Shown piece by piece: positions 9,803 to 63,862 of a stretch of DNA of 64,000 nt. This DNA comes from a virus: IMG/VR virus record IMGVR_UViG_3300042923_000619, positions 96,001 through 160,000 of that record. One strand, written 5' to 3'. The first letter of the stretch is position 1. Each line of letters opens with the position of its first letter. A model generated the notes under the pieces. It did no database searches, had not been told where the DNA came from, and saw nothing but the letters and a program-made list of their open reading frames with translations. A program made the translations under genes and the position numbers.

Positions 9803-9872
9803 AACAAATTAACATAAATATATTGACTTATGCACTAAAAAGGAGTATATTTATATTAAGGAAACAAATTAA
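9803..9872 (+). promoter_or_regulatory. First sigma-A promoter of the rightward array, flanked by AACAAATTAA motifs
   Basis: TTGACT(9823)-N17-TATATT(9846); AACAAATTAA at 9803 and 9863. Confidence 0.75.
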
Positions 9873-9890
9873 AATAATAAATGAAAGAGG

Positions 9891-11746
9891 TTGATTGATA
9901 TGACAATATCAGATATTAGAAGATGGATTGTATTAACAAACAAAAGCTATAAAGAATGGATCAAAGAGAATAATAAATATATGGCAGAGCAATACTTTGA
10001 TAAACGAAAAAGTTATTTAGACCAATTCAGTAAATATTACCATAATAAACAAGGAGAATTCACAAAAGAACAACAAATGTTTTACGATAGAAACAGTAAA
10101 GAATATGAATAATTAAGGCTGAAAAGCCTTTTTTATTTGTTGCAAATGATGTATAATTTGTCGAAAAATTTTTATATATTTATATTAATTTATTTCAAAA
10201 AACTATATACAAATCAATAAAATGAGAGTATAATCTATAGTATAGGGAACAAGGAAAGACGTAAACAAATTAATAAAAATATGAAGGAGTTGTTCAGATT
10301 ATGAAAAAAGTAGATTTTATAAAAGTGGTAAATGGAATGAATAAGGAAAATGAAATTGAAAGCTTTGACATTACAATATGGCATGAAGGTTCAGAAATAT
10401 ATACAGAAGTTTTAGTAAACGGAAATGAACCATTTACATATGGAGAAATAGAAAACTGGTATGAAGGTGAAACAATAGAAGATACAGAAGAAAATATATC
10501 TAAACTTTTAAAAGATGCTAAAAAAATTGAAGCTAACATAATCAAATGGATAAAAGGAACTTGTTTCCAAGGAACTAAAATAGTAATAAAAGAAGAGAAT
10601 ATATAAATTAGAAGGACGTAAAAATCCTTCTAATCTTTCATTATTTAAACAGAATAGAGGTGATTTAATGATGAAAAAATTTATAATATATTATGCTAAA
10701 AAAGATATAATCTTTGAAAATAGTGGAAGTTTCGCAATTATAAAAGCAGAATCATATAGGGATGCAAAAGAAAAATTTAAATATTATATAGTATCTAACA
10801 AAGAAACATTTGGGAACTTTATAGACTATTATTTTGACATAAAAGAAGAAGATAATTATAATTTTCAAGAAATACAAGTCTGATAAAAATATGATATAAT
10901 AAAATTGGTGGTGAAATTTATATAATGAATGAAAATTTAAACTGGTTTAAGATATTTGAAAATAAAACACTATCAAGAATTATTTTTGAAATTATAGTAT
11001 ATAGAAACAAAGTTAAGAACAAAAATACCAATGAGGAAGACTTAATTTTTATTCTTACTAGTAATTTTATAAAAATAAAAAATGTATCTTTAGATTTGTG
11101 TAATGGAATAGATATAAAAGATATCAACAATTCTTTGAAGGAGTTAGAGAATAAAGGATATATAAAAATAGAACAAATTGAAAAATTCATTCTTGATAAT
11201 GCATATTTAGCAATGGGACACAGTGAAAATATAAATATTTATTTATTAACTAATAAGGCAGATAAATTTATAAATGAAAAATATAAAATTATAAGGAGAA
11301 CCAACTCAAATGACAGTAGTAATAAGAATAATAGCTGAATACTTAAACATGTTAAAAGACTTTCAAACAGAATACAAAATATCAAGAAAAAGTTTTATAT
11401 TGCATCATAAAGAAAAAACTTTTGTTGTAAATCTTGAAGAAATTGACAACAAAGAAAATTTAAATGATTATGAATTGATTGATAAATATTGTAAATAAAA
11501 AAATTTTAGGAGTGATTATTTATGGTAAATATAGAAAATCAAAAAGAATTAATTAAAAAATTAGAATGGATTAAAAGTGGATTAGATAATAATAGATATG
11601 ATAGATTAGAAACAGAACATGACGAGTTTGATTATTTAACAGATGGATTAAAGAAAAAATTTTTAGATGCTGTTAAAGAGGAATTAAAAGAACAGAAACA
11701 AATTTTAAAAAATTTAAAAGGAACTCAAAAATTATTATCCAAATAA
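9891..11746 (+). CDS. Cluster of six small hypothetical early-type genes (9891, 10301, 10668, 10925, 11310, 11522)
   Basis: Co-oriented ORFs with strong RBSs, promoters and terminators (e.g. AAGGCT-GAAA-AGCCTT-U tract at 10116-10138); 10925..11338 has a wHTH-like segment. Confidence 0.7.
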
Positions 11747-12619
11747 AAATAATTAACCAATAAGACTATAGAAAAAATAAAAATCTATAGTCTATTTTTA
11801 TATCCAAAAATAAAAAAATAATATTACTGCAATTATTTATGATAAAAAATATCCAATAAAACCACGCTCAGGACTCCACAATAAGAAAAAAATAATTTTC
11901 CGATAACTTATATCTTGAAAAATAAAATTGCTTAAATAGGCTAATATGCTATATGTAAAAATTTTTTCTATGATGTTAAAATTAAAAAATATTCTCAGCA
12001 CATCAACAGATTAACCACTTGAATTCTAACGAAAAAATAAATTTAAGTAGAAATAAATTAAGATAAATACTTTAACGAATAAAAAGTTAATTGAGAATAA
12101 AATACACAAAGTCAGCATATAAACATAGCAAATAAGCCACTCATAATAAAATTAAAATAAAAAATTTTCTAAATGAGAATGCTAATTGAGAATGAAGTGA
12201 AAACTTGAAGAAAATAAAAAAAATTTTATTAAAAGTAGAAAAAATGATTTTTTAAAGAGTTCTAGAAATAGGATTCTTTTTATTATTTCAATCAAATACA
12301 AAACGTATAGTAACTAAAAATATAATTATATAGAAAATACACTATAACAACATTACAAACATACTACAAGGCTATTAAGAGCATTATAGACAATATTAGA
12401 CATAATAATATTATAATTAAACAACGCTCAAAACGACTCACAAAAACAATTAAAATCAGCTAACAATAAAGCACAACTAAAAAGAGACTATAATCACTAA
12501 TGAAAATAATCTCTTAATAACTTATGAAAGCTTAATCATATAAGCCTGCTTTGATGCACTTTTAAATTGTAATCTATATTAATTTATTATGTATGATCTA
12601 ATCTATTGATAATATATAA

Positions 12620-61168: not shown

Positions 61169-61182
61169 GAGGAATAATACAA

Positions 61183-62904
61183 ATGAAGTTTACAATGTAC
61201 CAAGTTATTAGTTTTCTTAATAAGATAGAGAATTCTGATAGAAAATTTAAAAGAGTAAATGATGAAAAGTTCAAATTGTTTAAGGGAATATATGGTGACT
61301 TAATGATAGAACTTAATGGAACTTATCGACCATGTCCTATTTTTCTATATATGCAAGATGAATGGATTTTAGAGGAATAAGACTAATGCAAGCAATAATA
61401 TTTTCTGTAGGTGTGCCAATGGTTCTGTTCCTAATAGTACACTTTACAGAAAAGCATAAATAAATTAATCAATAATAAGAATAAATTTAAAGGAGAAATG
61501 AAAGAAATGAATAAAGAATTTAAAGATGGATTAAGAAGTGCAATTGTAGTAGGTTTACAAAGTTTTAAATCAATTATTGAGGTATTAAGAGCTGACTATG
61601 AAAGATATAAAACAAAAGGTGAGGGATTTAATTTAGCTACATATAGAGGTAAAGTTTTATTGTTAGATATTGAAGATATAAATGAGGATATTAGTGCGTT
61701 TGAATTTGTAAAAAGACAAATAGACCAAATAAATGAATCTGAGGATGGTGAGTAAGTTATGAGAGATATAAAATCAATAAGTTTTGAAAGTATGATTGAA
61801 CATTATAAATGGTTACAAGAGCAATATCAATCTCAAGATGGAGTTAAAGAAGTTGGTTGTTACTGTGGCGATGATGGAAGAATATATTGTTCATACATAA
61901 ATGTGAGAGAATAAAAATGAAAGCAATAGCATATTTAGGTTTAGAAAGCACTACACCAATTGAAGTAGAAGTCACGGAAGAAGATATTAAAAGAGGTTAT
62001 GGGTTTGTTCCTTGTTTTGAATGTGAAGGCACAGGAATATGGGATTTTTACCCTAGTGGTTATTTTGATTATGATAAAGAAATTCCAACAGGAAAAGAAT
62101 TTCAATGTATAAATTGTAAAGGTACTGGAAAAGTATTAATAAATTGTTAAAGGAGAGATTTAAAAATGGAAGTAAGTGACCAAATAATAAAGGTATTAGA
62201 TGAAATAGGTAAAAGGTTTGGATTAGCAATAGACTGGACTCAAGCTAACATAATTCCATATGTTCAGCAGTTAGGACAAAGAATTGTAAATTATGAATTA
62301 TGGACAAGTGTAGTATGGGTAGTTTTAAGTTTAGTCTTTATAATTGTTTCTGTAAAACTTTTTAAGAAATTTAGAAAAAACATAAAAAGCGAAGATGAAT
62401 ATACTTGGTTTATTGGAATACTAGAATGTATTTTTAGTATTGTGGGGATTATTGTTTTTGGAATTGTTATTACTGTACAAGTATTTGATATTGTAACATG
62501 CTTAACTCTACCAGAGAAGGTAATATTTGAATTTGTAAAACAATACATAAATTAAAAGTAGATAAAAAGTTAATTTTAACAAGAGTTAAATAAATTAATA
62601 AAAAAAATAAAATTGAAAGAAGGAATTGAAAATGAAAAACAACAAAATATTAAAATGTCCACTTGGAGGAGATGAAACAAATAACTGCGAGAGTTGTAGC
62701 TATTCAGGAGAATATAGTTTCTTTGGTGGTCAATGTATAGTAAGAGAAAAGGCTGAATATTTGAACGAGAAGATAAAAGAACACAATGAAGGGAAATGCA
62801 ATTGTGATTTAAGATATGAAGGAAAAGGATTCTGTCTAGCTGGAGAATACTTAGAAGGTTGTAGAACTTTAAATGATGTATTGGAGGATATAGATGTTGA
62901 ATAA
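61183..62904 (+). CDS. Small genes including a CxxCxGxG zinc-finger protein (61887..62150), a membrane protein (62166..62555) and a Cys-rich protein (62626..62904)
   Basis: CFECEGTG and CINCKGTG; two transmembrane segments in 62166. Confidence 0.6.
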
Positions 62905-63712
62905 TATACAACAAATTAAAGAAAACTCAATACATAATTTAGATGCAATAACACTACTAGAACAGACATATGAGGAATTTGGAGATGAAAGTGTAAATAT
63001 GTTTTTAATTGATTTCCCTTATACATTCAAAGGTAAACAAAGAGTTACTGCTAATCAATGGGACTTGCCTGTGGATATTGAAAGATTCTTTGAATTAGCT
63101 TCAAAATGCTTAACTAAAGATGGTTGTATAGCTTTAACTGCAACTCAACCTTTTGCATCATATTTAATAATGAAATGTATGGAAATGAATTGTAATCCTA
63201 AGTATAAAGACATTGAATTAGTTAATTTTAAATATGATTGGATTTGGGAAAAAGATAACGGTAGTAATTTTGTACATACTAAGCATCAACCAATGAAAGT
63301 ACATGAAGCAGTATTAATATTTGGAAAAGCTCCAACTACATATAATAAAAAAGATGAATATATGCTATATAATCCACAATACACATATTCTAAACCTTAT
63401 ACAATTAAACGTGATATGTCAGATGTAACTAATTTAGAAGGATTTAAAGGCAGAACTGATACAGATAATCAAGATGGCAAAAGATGTCCTAGAACTGTTC
63501 AAAAGGTTAATTTAGAACGTGGCTTACACCCTACTCAAAAACCGACTGAATTATTTGAGTATATAATTAAAACATATACAAATGAAAATGATTTAGTTGT
63601 TGATTTATGTGCAGGAAGTGGAACAACAAAAGTTGCTTGTATAAATACAAATAGAAAATACATAGTTAATGATATTGAAGAAAAATATTATAATATAATG
63701 CTAAATAGATAA
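62894..63712 (+). CDS. Beta-class DNA methyltransferase, intact orphan
   Basis: DFPY motif IV, HPTQKP, DLCAGSGTT motif I; paralogous to 55121..55907. Confidence 0.88.
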   Translation: MLNNIQQIKENSIHNLDAITLLEQTYEEFGDESVNMFLIDFPYTFKGKQRVTANQWDLPVDIERFFELASKCLTKDGCIALTATQPFASYLIMKCMEMNCNPKYKDIELVNFKYDWIWEKDNGSNFVHTKHQPMKVHEAVLIFGKAPTTYNKKDEYMLYNPQYTYSKPYTIKRDMSDVTNLEGFKGRTDTDNQDGKRCPRTVQKVNLERGLHPTQKPTELFEYIIKTYTNENDLVVDLCAGSGTTKVACINTNRKYIVNDIEEKYYNIMLNR

Positions 63713-63862
63713 TAAATTAAATTATTTCCTAAAATTAAGTTTTAAAGTTAGTAATATAAAAATACAAACATCTTATTCTGGGAAATAATGTATAATATTA
63801 CTATAAAAGGTTGATTTTATAAGAACATAATAAATTAAGATAAATAGAAAGATGGTGATATA

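Follow-up and report, generated by a model that had tools for sequence, protein, structure and literature searches.

In Bacillus phage SPbeta, the integrase-fold repressor MrpR has been shown experimentally to bind approximately 10 copies of the SPbeta repeated element (SPBRE) in phage promoter regions and to repress the respective promoters (PMC10516654). The SroF protein of phage phi3T is monomeric when bound to its asymmetric 26-bp box, which is built around two A-tracts, and reads 24 of the 26 bp (bioRxiv 10.1101/2025.11.27.690993). An unrelated repressor, that of Cluster A mycobacteriophages, is likewise a monomer and recognizes more than 20 asymmetric 13-mers located at promoters and in short intergenic spaces; their orientation is that of transcription, and a reversed site no longer gives repression (PMC9283540). 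Here, we describe a dispersed decamer, AAYAAATTAA, in a 64,000-nt window (bases 96001 to 160000) of a 196,135-bp virus record, IMGVR_UViG_3300042923_000619 from IMG/VR (hereafter contig G000), along with the protein encoded at 41444..42601, the candidate reader of this word. Coordinates are those of the window unless the contig is named. The original prediction, made from the letters of the window alone, had listed about 45 copies of the decamer at promoters and leaders and interpreted them as a genome-wide repressor site analogous to SPBRE. The word family proved to be real, strong, and conserved, and it is best read as a genome-scale network of operators and stoperators of an SPbeta-type repressor module.

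The family AAYAAATTAA(W-A-N-A-A-A) extends over positions 9482..63838 on both strands. The window holds 94 copies of the decamer, against 10.2 +/- 3.1 in dinucleotide shuffles, so that the earlier figure of about 45 was too low, although the decamer is present at every coordinate named at that time. Of these, 73 are plus-strand and 21 are minus-strand copies, and 34 are of the C form, as opposed to the T form. The whole contig carries 218 copies, with approximately 25 expected under Markov models of orders 1 to 4; by a crude gene model, which leaves 16% of the DNA intergenic, 143 of these 218 are intergenic. Under an order-3 model trained on the same DNA, intergenic sequence read in the direction of its genes contains 32 copies of the C form (1.0 expected) and 70 of the T form (5.1 expected), i.e., 102 sense copies against approximately 6, whereas the order-3 intergenic model gives 1.3 for the 13 antisense copies. 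When all 10-mers in co-oriented intergenic DNA were scored, both forms and their shifted versions came out on top. The genes of the contig point one way between approximately 25 and 105 kb and the opposite way elsewhere, and the strand of the word switches exactly where the gene strand switches. The enrichment, initially derived from a rough estimate of base composition, holds under Markov orders 1 to 6 and under the strand-specific intergenic order-3 model, which rules out a composition artifact. Within coding regions of the whole contig, 37 in-frame sense copies encode the tripeptide Asn-Lys-Leu, against approximately 9 predicted from codon usage. This 4- to 5-fold excess is partly explained by a bias toward the peptide itself (75 occurrences versus 39), and the in-gene copies are not treated here as functional.

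The core of the word is invariant: every single-base variant occurs at about the background frequency, and a search with a degenerate position weight matrix recovered only exact copies. The decamer is followed by a weaker 3' extension, T/A-A-N-A-A-A, which brings the element to approximately 17 bits and 18 to 24 bp in all, with two A-tracts spaced one helical turn apart. Little information is found in the downstream flank and none in the upstream one, which means that the copies are not fragments of longer repeats. The only extended match, correctly noted in the original prediction, is that of the minus-strand copy at 199-208, which has 28 bp in common with the sequence from 54179 onward. The element thus has the properties of SPBRE, being repeated, asymmetric, AT-rich, sense-oriented, and present at several promoters.

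The placement of the word was compared with that of 76 predicted intergenic sigmaA-type promoters (TTGnnn-N16-18-TAnnnT). Direct copies form two peaks, one with copy starts between -23 and -18 relative to the first base of the -35 hexamer (n = 15; roughly -58 to -47 from the transcription start site [TSS]) and one that starts at +38 to +51 from the same base (n = 14; roughly +2 to +15 from the TSS). Copies at 9803, 33100, and 54179 end 10 to 11 nt upstream of the -35 hexamer, and the one at 16809 ends 18 nt upstream of it. The C form dominates among promoter copies, accounting for 11 of 16 in the upstream class and 9 of 14 in the TSS-proximal class. Promoter calls without a nearby copy are almost all directed away from any gene and are probably spurious.

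Pairs of copies located 60 to 68 bp apart bracket the core promoter, for example 9803/9863, 12873/12809, and 54179/54240. The unit at 9803..9872 (plus strand) consists of a C-form copy at 9803-9812, 10 nt, TTGACT-N17-TATATT, a C-form leader copy at 9863-9872, a Shine-Dalgarno (SD) sequence, and the gene start at 9891, with the two copies 60 nt apart. Its minus-strand equivalent at 12809..12882 has a copy at 12873-12882, 11 nt, TTGCAA-N17-TAGAAT, a leader copy at 12809-12818 (64 nt apart), an SD sequence, and an ATG codon. The third unit, 54179..54249 (plus), includes a T-form copy, 11 nt, TTGCAT-N17-TAATAT, a C-form leader copy at 54240, and an SD sequence; its first 28 bp are those that recur at 199-208 and the adjoining flank. 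At 44597..44674 (plus), a terminator is followed by a promoter with a copy at 44597, TTGACA-N17-TAAAAT, and a C-form leader copy at 44665, ahead of the SD sequence of the gene at 44692. Two tandem promoters serve the MazF-like gene (42628..42793, plus): an inverted copy at 42628, TTGACA-N17-TAATAT, a C-form copy at 42700, a second TTGACA-N17-TAATAT, and a C-form copy at 42784.

Inverted copies are placed with similar precision. At least 8 promoters have one 8 to 13 nt upstream of the -35 hexamer, sometimes accompanied by a direct copy within the 17-nt spacer, as in the pairs 27022/27048 and 27746/27774 and in the region 31466-31503. In the first of these (27022..27057), TTAATTTATT is followed by 8 nt, TAGACA, 2 nt, AACAAATTAA, 5 nt, and TATAAT, and the same layout is repeated at 27746-27783 and 31466-31503; the direct copies at 27048, 27774, and 31494 all lie inside 17-nt spacers. 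The promoter of the gene at 39578 (39484..39512, plus; TTGATA-N17-TAAAAT) has an inverted decamer at 39496-39505 in its spacer, and a second inverted copy is found at 39538-39547. The positional classes and contexts described in the original prediction hold throughout, including the inverted copies in spacers. Copies that flank or fill the -35 and spacer regions in inverted orientation make sense for an operator and do not make sense for a promoter or an RNA element.

A second short word, the heptamer TGTCGAA, which is similar to the Spo0A box, occurs 6 times in the window (10159, 30044, 30630, 31449, and 39185 on the plus strand and 39141 on the minus strand), with 1.9 expected and 6 reached in 1 of 100 shuffles. 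Four copies lie 20 to 35 nt upstream of inverted decamers at promoters, and two are in the lysogeny-switch region; these heptamers may link the phage promoters to sporulation control.

Another class of copies of the decamer is found next to ribosome-binding sites (RBSs). This class comprises 57 copies located 13 to 38 nt before start codons, with a peak at 17 to 27 nt that includes at least 47 genes and places the word 6 to 14 nt upstream of the SD sequence. In 17 of the 57, fewer than 10 nt separate the upstream gene from the word; 7 of these 17 tight-junction copies overlap the stop codon. Most of the 17 are not preceded by a -10-like hexamer, and several belong to the late cluster, which contains 32 intergenic copies altogether. 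The T form is found in 16 of the 17. Examples on the plus strand include the T-form copy at 34894..34903, which lies approximately 4 nt past the stop codon of the preceding gene and is separated by 22 nt from the start codon at 34926, and the copy at 47988-47997, which precedes the gene at 48017. Asymmetric sites that are numerous, occupy both promoters and short intergenic spaces, and have their orientation tied to transcription are the pattern known from mycobacteriophage L5.

The distribution of the word also has one conspicuous gap. The largest copy-free stretch of the contig, 9.3 kb between 199 and 9482, is more than twice as long as the next largest; its intergenic DNA amounts to 3.1 kb, for which 14 copies are expected and none is seen (Poisson P = 7e-7). 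This stretch (209..9481, minus strand) is the plasmid-maintenance module, which encodes a RepA-type initiator (833-2014), a MerR regulator (2490-3113), TubZ (3160-4344), a Replic_Relax protein (5874-6455), and an FtsK/SpoIIIE ATPase (6425-7741). Between this module and the first plus-strand genes, there is a 2-kb gene-poor stretch (7930-9900), within which decamers resume at 9482; it is a candidate replication-origin or centromere region because gene orientation and GC skew switch there.

The contig has direct terminal repeats and a G+C content of 25% and, in addition to the maintenance module, encodes DNA polymerase, primase, and a RecJ-like exonuclease, a late structural cluster, and a YonO-type RNA polymerase. 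Judging from this gene content, it is a large temperate plasmid-phage of the clostridial type, similar to the Clostridium phage c-st, with which it has a MazF-like/YopQ/YopR gene set in common. Searches for near-identical deposited phages or plasmids found none, and a host search, in which proteins were compared and 185,000 genomes were screened for a DNA pattern of two copies, revealed no relative, the matches to the pattern being due to chance. No arbitrium genes were seen on the plasmid-phage.

Among viral contigs scanned with the extended word, an AT-rich group has the decamer at a density of approximately one or more copies per kb, with the same strand bias. The relatives compared here are G002 (218 kb), G004 (141 kb), and G007, of which G004 and G007 are incomplete fragments, as well as c-st (locus L133, covering bases 1 to 50000 of NC_007581) and L137 (logan SRR15661546_810). 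G002, the most complete of these, shares 79 of 272 genes with the plasmid-phage at a median identity of 40%, and the decamer is the top intergenic word there as well (45 copies versus 1.5 expected and 97 versus 6.9). Both promoter peaks are retained, as is the spacing of 15 to 27 nt to start codons, and the largest copy-free stretch of G002 contains its TubZ and RepA homologs. The two forms are distributed unevenly in G002 too, with the C form in 12 of 17 TSS-proximal copies and the T form in 14 of 19 tight-junction copies and 10 of 16 copies upstream of the -35 hexamer.

The best-conserved protein shared by all four same-word phages is a 65-aa product encoded at 61183-61380 (plus), with 77 to 82% identity. 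It was considered as a Sar-like DNA mimic or an alternative reader of the word and was rejected: its predicted structure (pLDDT 92) is beta-rich, and no known fold matched it significantly, apart from a weak hint of similarity to Tad2. A 117-aa protein encoded at 36525-36878 (plus), within a 2.8-kb copy-free operon (35391-38192), matches transcriptional regulator and repressor families of PHROG and has 84% identity to its G002 counterpart, compared with an average of 40% between the two phages.

The candidate reader of the word, a protein of 385 aa encoded at 41444..42601 on the plus strand, belongs to the MrpR/SroF type by several lines of evidence. It matches the Pfam family MrpR_N_CB (PF22822) at 27.3 bits, a marginal score given the cut-off of 27, and it matches the integrase family phrog_5830 over its full length, whereas the catalytic Phage_integrase family (PF00589) gave no match at E <= 0.01. 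Among its homologs, PF22822 was detected in 18 of the 27 proteins listed, 6 of which also contained PF22823; both families are specific to MrpR. An AlphaFold (AF2) model built on 26 sequences (pLDDT 87) has the two-domain fold of tyrosine recombinases, with a core-binding and a catalytic domain. In a Foldseek search of the PDB with this model, ranks 1 to 7 are all taken by YopR, MrpR, and phi3T SroF (8bj6, 8bpz, 8a0a, 9rgl, and 9rd5, the last being DNA-bound), ahead of all true recombinases, such as integron integrase, XerA, and lambda Int. A PDB sequence search with both proteins of the module returned nothing significant.

The gene neighborhood points in the same direction. The start of the mrpR-like gene (41444) overlaps the end (41451) of a plus-strand gene, 40033..41451, that encodes a 472-aa homolog of YopQ (SroE), as judged by a tblastn match to SPbeta yopQ (E = 3e-14) and by phrog_5732; the two genes are translationally coupled, as they are in SPbeta and c-st, where CST029 is annotated as a YopQ homolog. 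The mrpR-like gene thus lies directly downstream of the yopQ-like gene in a lysogeny-control operon. YopQ is known to carry a ParB_N_Srx domain (PMC8612738). The order of genes in this region, which consists of a divergent helix-turn-helix (HTH) gene, a small open reading frame (ORF), and the YopQ-like, MrpR-like, and MazF-like genes, is kept in c-st and in independently found metagenomic contigs. The divergent gene (38849..39148, minus) encodes an XRE-type HTH protein (PF01381) that falls into PHROG transcriptional regulators, and its synteny is likewise kept in relatives. The MazF/PemK-domain protein (42813..43715, plus; 300 aa; PF02452, 1.4e-29; phrog_1936) has long N- and C-terminal extensions and no obvious MazE. 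It is followed by a gene for a 207-aa protein (43728-44351, plus), and this pair adjoins the MrpR-like gene in every relative, including c-st (CST027/028).

The promoter of the yopQ-like/mrpR-like operon (39955..39983, plus) consists of TTGCAA at 39955-60, an inverted decamer at 39961-70, the sequence aaagtga, and TATAAT at 39978-83, i.e., TTGCAA-N17-TATAAT, with the word filling most of the spacer. This candidate autoregulatory site had been noticed in the original prediction, which assigned autoregulation to a recombinase-fold protein. The inverted copy is real and makes autoregulation plausible; the recombinase-fold protein is the product of 41444..42601, and 40033..41451 encodes the YopQ-like protein of the ParB_N type.

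SPBRE was derived anew from the MrpR-bound promoters in the SPbeta record. The element is nearly invariant, has the sense orientation, and is located immediately upstream of the SD sequence (yopM, yopV, and yonP) or of the -35 hexamer (aimR and yonX); the yonX promoter is bracketed by two copies 64 bp apart. The likeness to the plasmid-phage therefore includes an AT-rich, asymmetric A-tract repeat that is co-oriented with genes and found upstream of -35 or SD sequences, the promoter bracket of approximately 64 bp, and a homologous integrase-fold protein encoded beside a YopQ homolog (the known proteins being those in PDB entries 8a0a, 8bj6, and 9rd5). Furthermore, the phage polymerase operon is among the site-bearing operons in both, as MrpR binds at yonP-yonO in SPbeta. 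The differences are that the SPbeta word is CAAATAC-AAAWAATATGTAT rather than AAYAAATTAA-TANAAA, that the candidate reader is only approximately 14% identical to YopR, and that SPbeta is an integrated prophage, whereas TubZ and RepA make this one a plasmid-prophage. In addition, SPbeta has approximately 10 sites in 134 kb, all at promoters, as opposed to 218 copies in 196 kb, of which 143 are intergenic and some lie at junctions inside operons and in the late cluster. The analogy drawn in the original prediction is thus supported computationally by the Pfam match, the fold, the coupling to YopQ, and the SPBRE-like placement; the sites within operons and in the late cluster go beyond it and require the "stoperator" concept developed for L5.

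Similarity to L5 gp71 and the TipsytheTRex repressor (PMC9283540, PMC6550527) lies in the large number of sharply conserved asymmetric sites, often at stop codons and at a density of approximately 0.5 to 1 per kb, with their orientation following transcription; the L5 repressor, too, is a monomer, with two DNA-reading domains. However, it is a 183-aa protein that combines an HTH with a "stoperator domain", its sites are GC-rich 13-mers, and its hosts are actinobacteria. Given that its fold is unrelated to the integrase fold, the plasmid-phage system could be L5-like at most in its manner of working and is not a member of the L5 family. The orientation-dependent block to elongation shown in L5 would apply to the plasmid-phage by analogy.

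Phage c-st, also a large AT-rich plasmid-prophage with direct terminal repeats, has the same MazF-like, YopQ (CST029), and YopR (CST030) module, and it uses its own intergenic word, ACAAAATTAAATTAA. As AAATTAAATT, it occurs 22 times versus 2.2 expected, never in antisense, and is found just upstream of TTGACA -35 boxes or of SD sequences; no published description of it was found in the literature searched. Similarly, L137, which encodes the same HTH/YopQ/MrpR/MazF module with an MrpR-like protein whose clade sits on a long stem in the tree, has a leader word, ATAAAATATA, present 6 times (0.6 expected), upstream of the genes at 3233, 3655, 6439, 8620, 11474, and 12464. Lineage-specific words in conserved positions are what pairs of repressors and operators would produce.

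Taken together, these data make it likely that the decamer is a site of transcriptional control at the DNA level, bound by some repressor-like factor. We give roughly even chances to the complete proposal that it is the binding site of the lysogeny repressor and that the product of 41444..42601 is its reader. By analogy with MrpR and SroF, this protein would bind the asymmetric site as a monomer, which would give the site its direction and explain the strand bias. Promoter copies, mostly of the C form, whether located at approximately -58 to -47, at +2 to +15, or inverted across the -35 and spacer, would fall inside the footprint of RNA polymerase and block initiation. Junction copies, mostly of the T form, located between a stop codon and the next RBS or overlapping the former, would act as orientation-dependent roadblocks in the manner of L5 stoperators, which would account for their presence. 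Nearly the whole 196-kb genome, including the operon of the YonO-type polymerase, could then be silenced in the plasmid-prophage state, while the site-free RepA/TubZ maintenance module would stay on; the inverted copy in the spacer of the repressor operon suggests autoregulation. A further extension, which we put forward only tentatively, is that an integrase-fold monomeric repressor, perhaps together with YopQ as a ParB-like partner, controls more than 140 operators and stoperators as an orientation-locked network that silences the entire phage and includes roadblocks against its own YonO-type polymerase.

Several observations weigh against the assignment of the word to this repressor. The 10-bp core is invariant in more than 140 intergenic sites, a number far above the approximately 10 SPBRE sites of SPbeta, and a scan of the SPbeta record revealed no SPBRE in the late operon. 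Loss of catalytic residues in the candidate reader is weakly indicated by one low-probability profile alignment (hhalign against SPbeta YopP), which puts Gln179 at the Arg I position, and a conserved Tyr near the C terminus remains. Whether a gene has a site in front of it does not correlate significantly between G000 and G002 orthologs (Fisher P = 0.75), although the distance to the start codon is nearly equal in 8 of the 9 orthologs that have a copy in both, so that sites turn over while the overall pattern is maintained. The most serious point concerns specificity. G004 carries the identical decamer (153 copies in 141 kb), and its canonical-module MrpR-like protein, which sits on a very long branch, is only 25 to 28% identical; the repressors of SPbeta and phi3T, which have diverged to a similar degree, read different boxes. 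The family tree is compatible with the same-word phages forming one clade or more than one. The c-st repressor is 22 to 31% identical to that of the window, and the TAAATTAA core that the two phages share hints at a reader more conserved than either. No second dispersed word was found when one was looked for to go with the extra MrpR-like paralogs of G004 and G007.

Accordingly, a better-conserved protein might read the word, leaving the MrpR-like protein with some other target. The options include the C-terminal domain of the alpha subunit of host RNA polymerase, acting through UP-like phased A-tracts, a host nucleoid or regulatory protein, the 117-aa HTH protein, and the XRE-type protein encoded at 38849..39148. 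Such a reader would fit better with an identical decamer in phages whose module MrpR-like proteins are 25 to 39% identical and with the core common to c-st; moreover, the A-tracts of the upstream class are near -54 and -43, where UP elements lie, and the 117-aa protein combines its PHROG assignment with unusual conservation in G002. An UP element, however, would explain only the 15 or 16 copies at approximately -60 to -40; most copies are downstream of the TSS or in operon junctions, and those at +2 to +15 and in spacers are equally outside its reach. XRE-type dimers bind palindromes, whereas the word is asymmetric and strongly oriented; the gene for the 117-aa protein was not found in the incomplete G004 and G007 fragments, and the maintenance module is free of the word even though the same host polymerase acts on its promoters. 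On balance, we consider a reader of this kind unlikely.

The assignment to the integrase-fold repressor must also be weighed against the phage polymerase, encoded just upstream of the window (contig 90220-93114, minus strand; L129:10220-13114). This YonO-type single-polypeptide RNA polymerase of 964 aa matches SPbeta YonO in BLASTP (1e-17), shows a DFDAD metal-binding motif opposite DNDGD, and belongs with it to phrog_8308. The following 277-aa ORF (L129:9385-10218, minus) resembles the YonO C terminus at its end, which points to a possible split or extension of the polymerase gene. Short, AT-rich, invariant sense words upstream of the RBS that often overlap a stop codon are known as T4-type late promoters (TATAAATA) and as promoters of phage RNA polymerases. 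The decamer resembles them in all of these respects, and it could be the recognition element at which the YonO-type enzyme re-initiates transcription of many genes, 17 to 27 nt upstream of the start codon. Besides its invariant core and the narrow distance to the start codon, this idea draws on the copies at late-cluster junctions where no sigmaA promoter fits, on the absence of the word from the host-expressed maintenance genes, on its persistence in phages with diverged repressors, and on the fact that the promoter of YonO is still undefined (PMC5467207). The late cluster of SPbeta, however, is a single operon that YonO reads from one start site (PMC5467207), and it contains no repeated word. 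An element of this kind should be found only at transcript starts, in sense, and independently of host promoters; instead, 29 copies occupy two fixed positions on either side of sigmaA promoters, and from the copies inverted across the -35 or spacer, transcription would run antisense into the genes upstream. The YonO-like operon itself starts at approximately contig position 94,360 from a host-type sigmaA promoter bracketed by two C-form copies, the YonO homologs of G000 and G002 are only 34% identical, and searches for sigma factors and T7-type polymerases on the contig found none. We therefore regard a promoter function of the word as improbable.

Least likely is action in RNA, as a translational enhancer or standby site 6 to 14 nt upstream of the SD sequence or as a site where an endoribonuclease, for instance the MazF-like protein, processes the transcript: sense orientation, the peak before start codons of at least 47 genes, copies at junctions in long polycistronic units, the constant presence of a MazF-domain gene beside the module, and the ACA within the C form would agree with it, but the commoner T form lacks ACA, there is no SD complementarity and no evident structure, 15 or 16 copies lie upstream of -35 hexamers, at a fixed 10 to 11 nt and with no SD sequence following, inverted copies are 10-fold enriched and precisely placed at promoters, and the maintenance genes lack the word even though they use the same ribosomes.

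Two HNH-endonuclease-like paralogs (phrog_953) are found, one in the window at 59798-60571 (plus) and the other at contig positions 22497-23261 (plus), each approximately 50% identical to one G002 gene, and NUMOD1/I-TevI-type homing-endonuclease domains are found at 51138-52190.

If the repressor reading is correct, the integrase-fold system of MrpR/SroF and SPBRE would extend from SPbeta phages of Bacillus to large clostridial plasmid-phages, including the toxin-converting c-st. A repressor of this type would then work on a genome scale, in a direction-dependent, stoperator-like manner so far documented only for the unrelated repressor of mycobacteriophages, meaning that the L5 strategy would have arisen a second time, by convergence, on another protein fold, with a site that stays invariant while the repressors drift to approximately 25% identity. 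That the site does not vary while its candidate repressor diverges fast is a discrepancy that deserves an explanation of its own. For a phage group that has not been cultured, the word shows the location of approximately 80 promoters and many operon junctions and provides a simple sequence marker for recognizing further relatives, and the clean split between motif-bearing genes and the motif-free maintenance module yields a prediction of the genes that are active in the lysogenic plasmid state.

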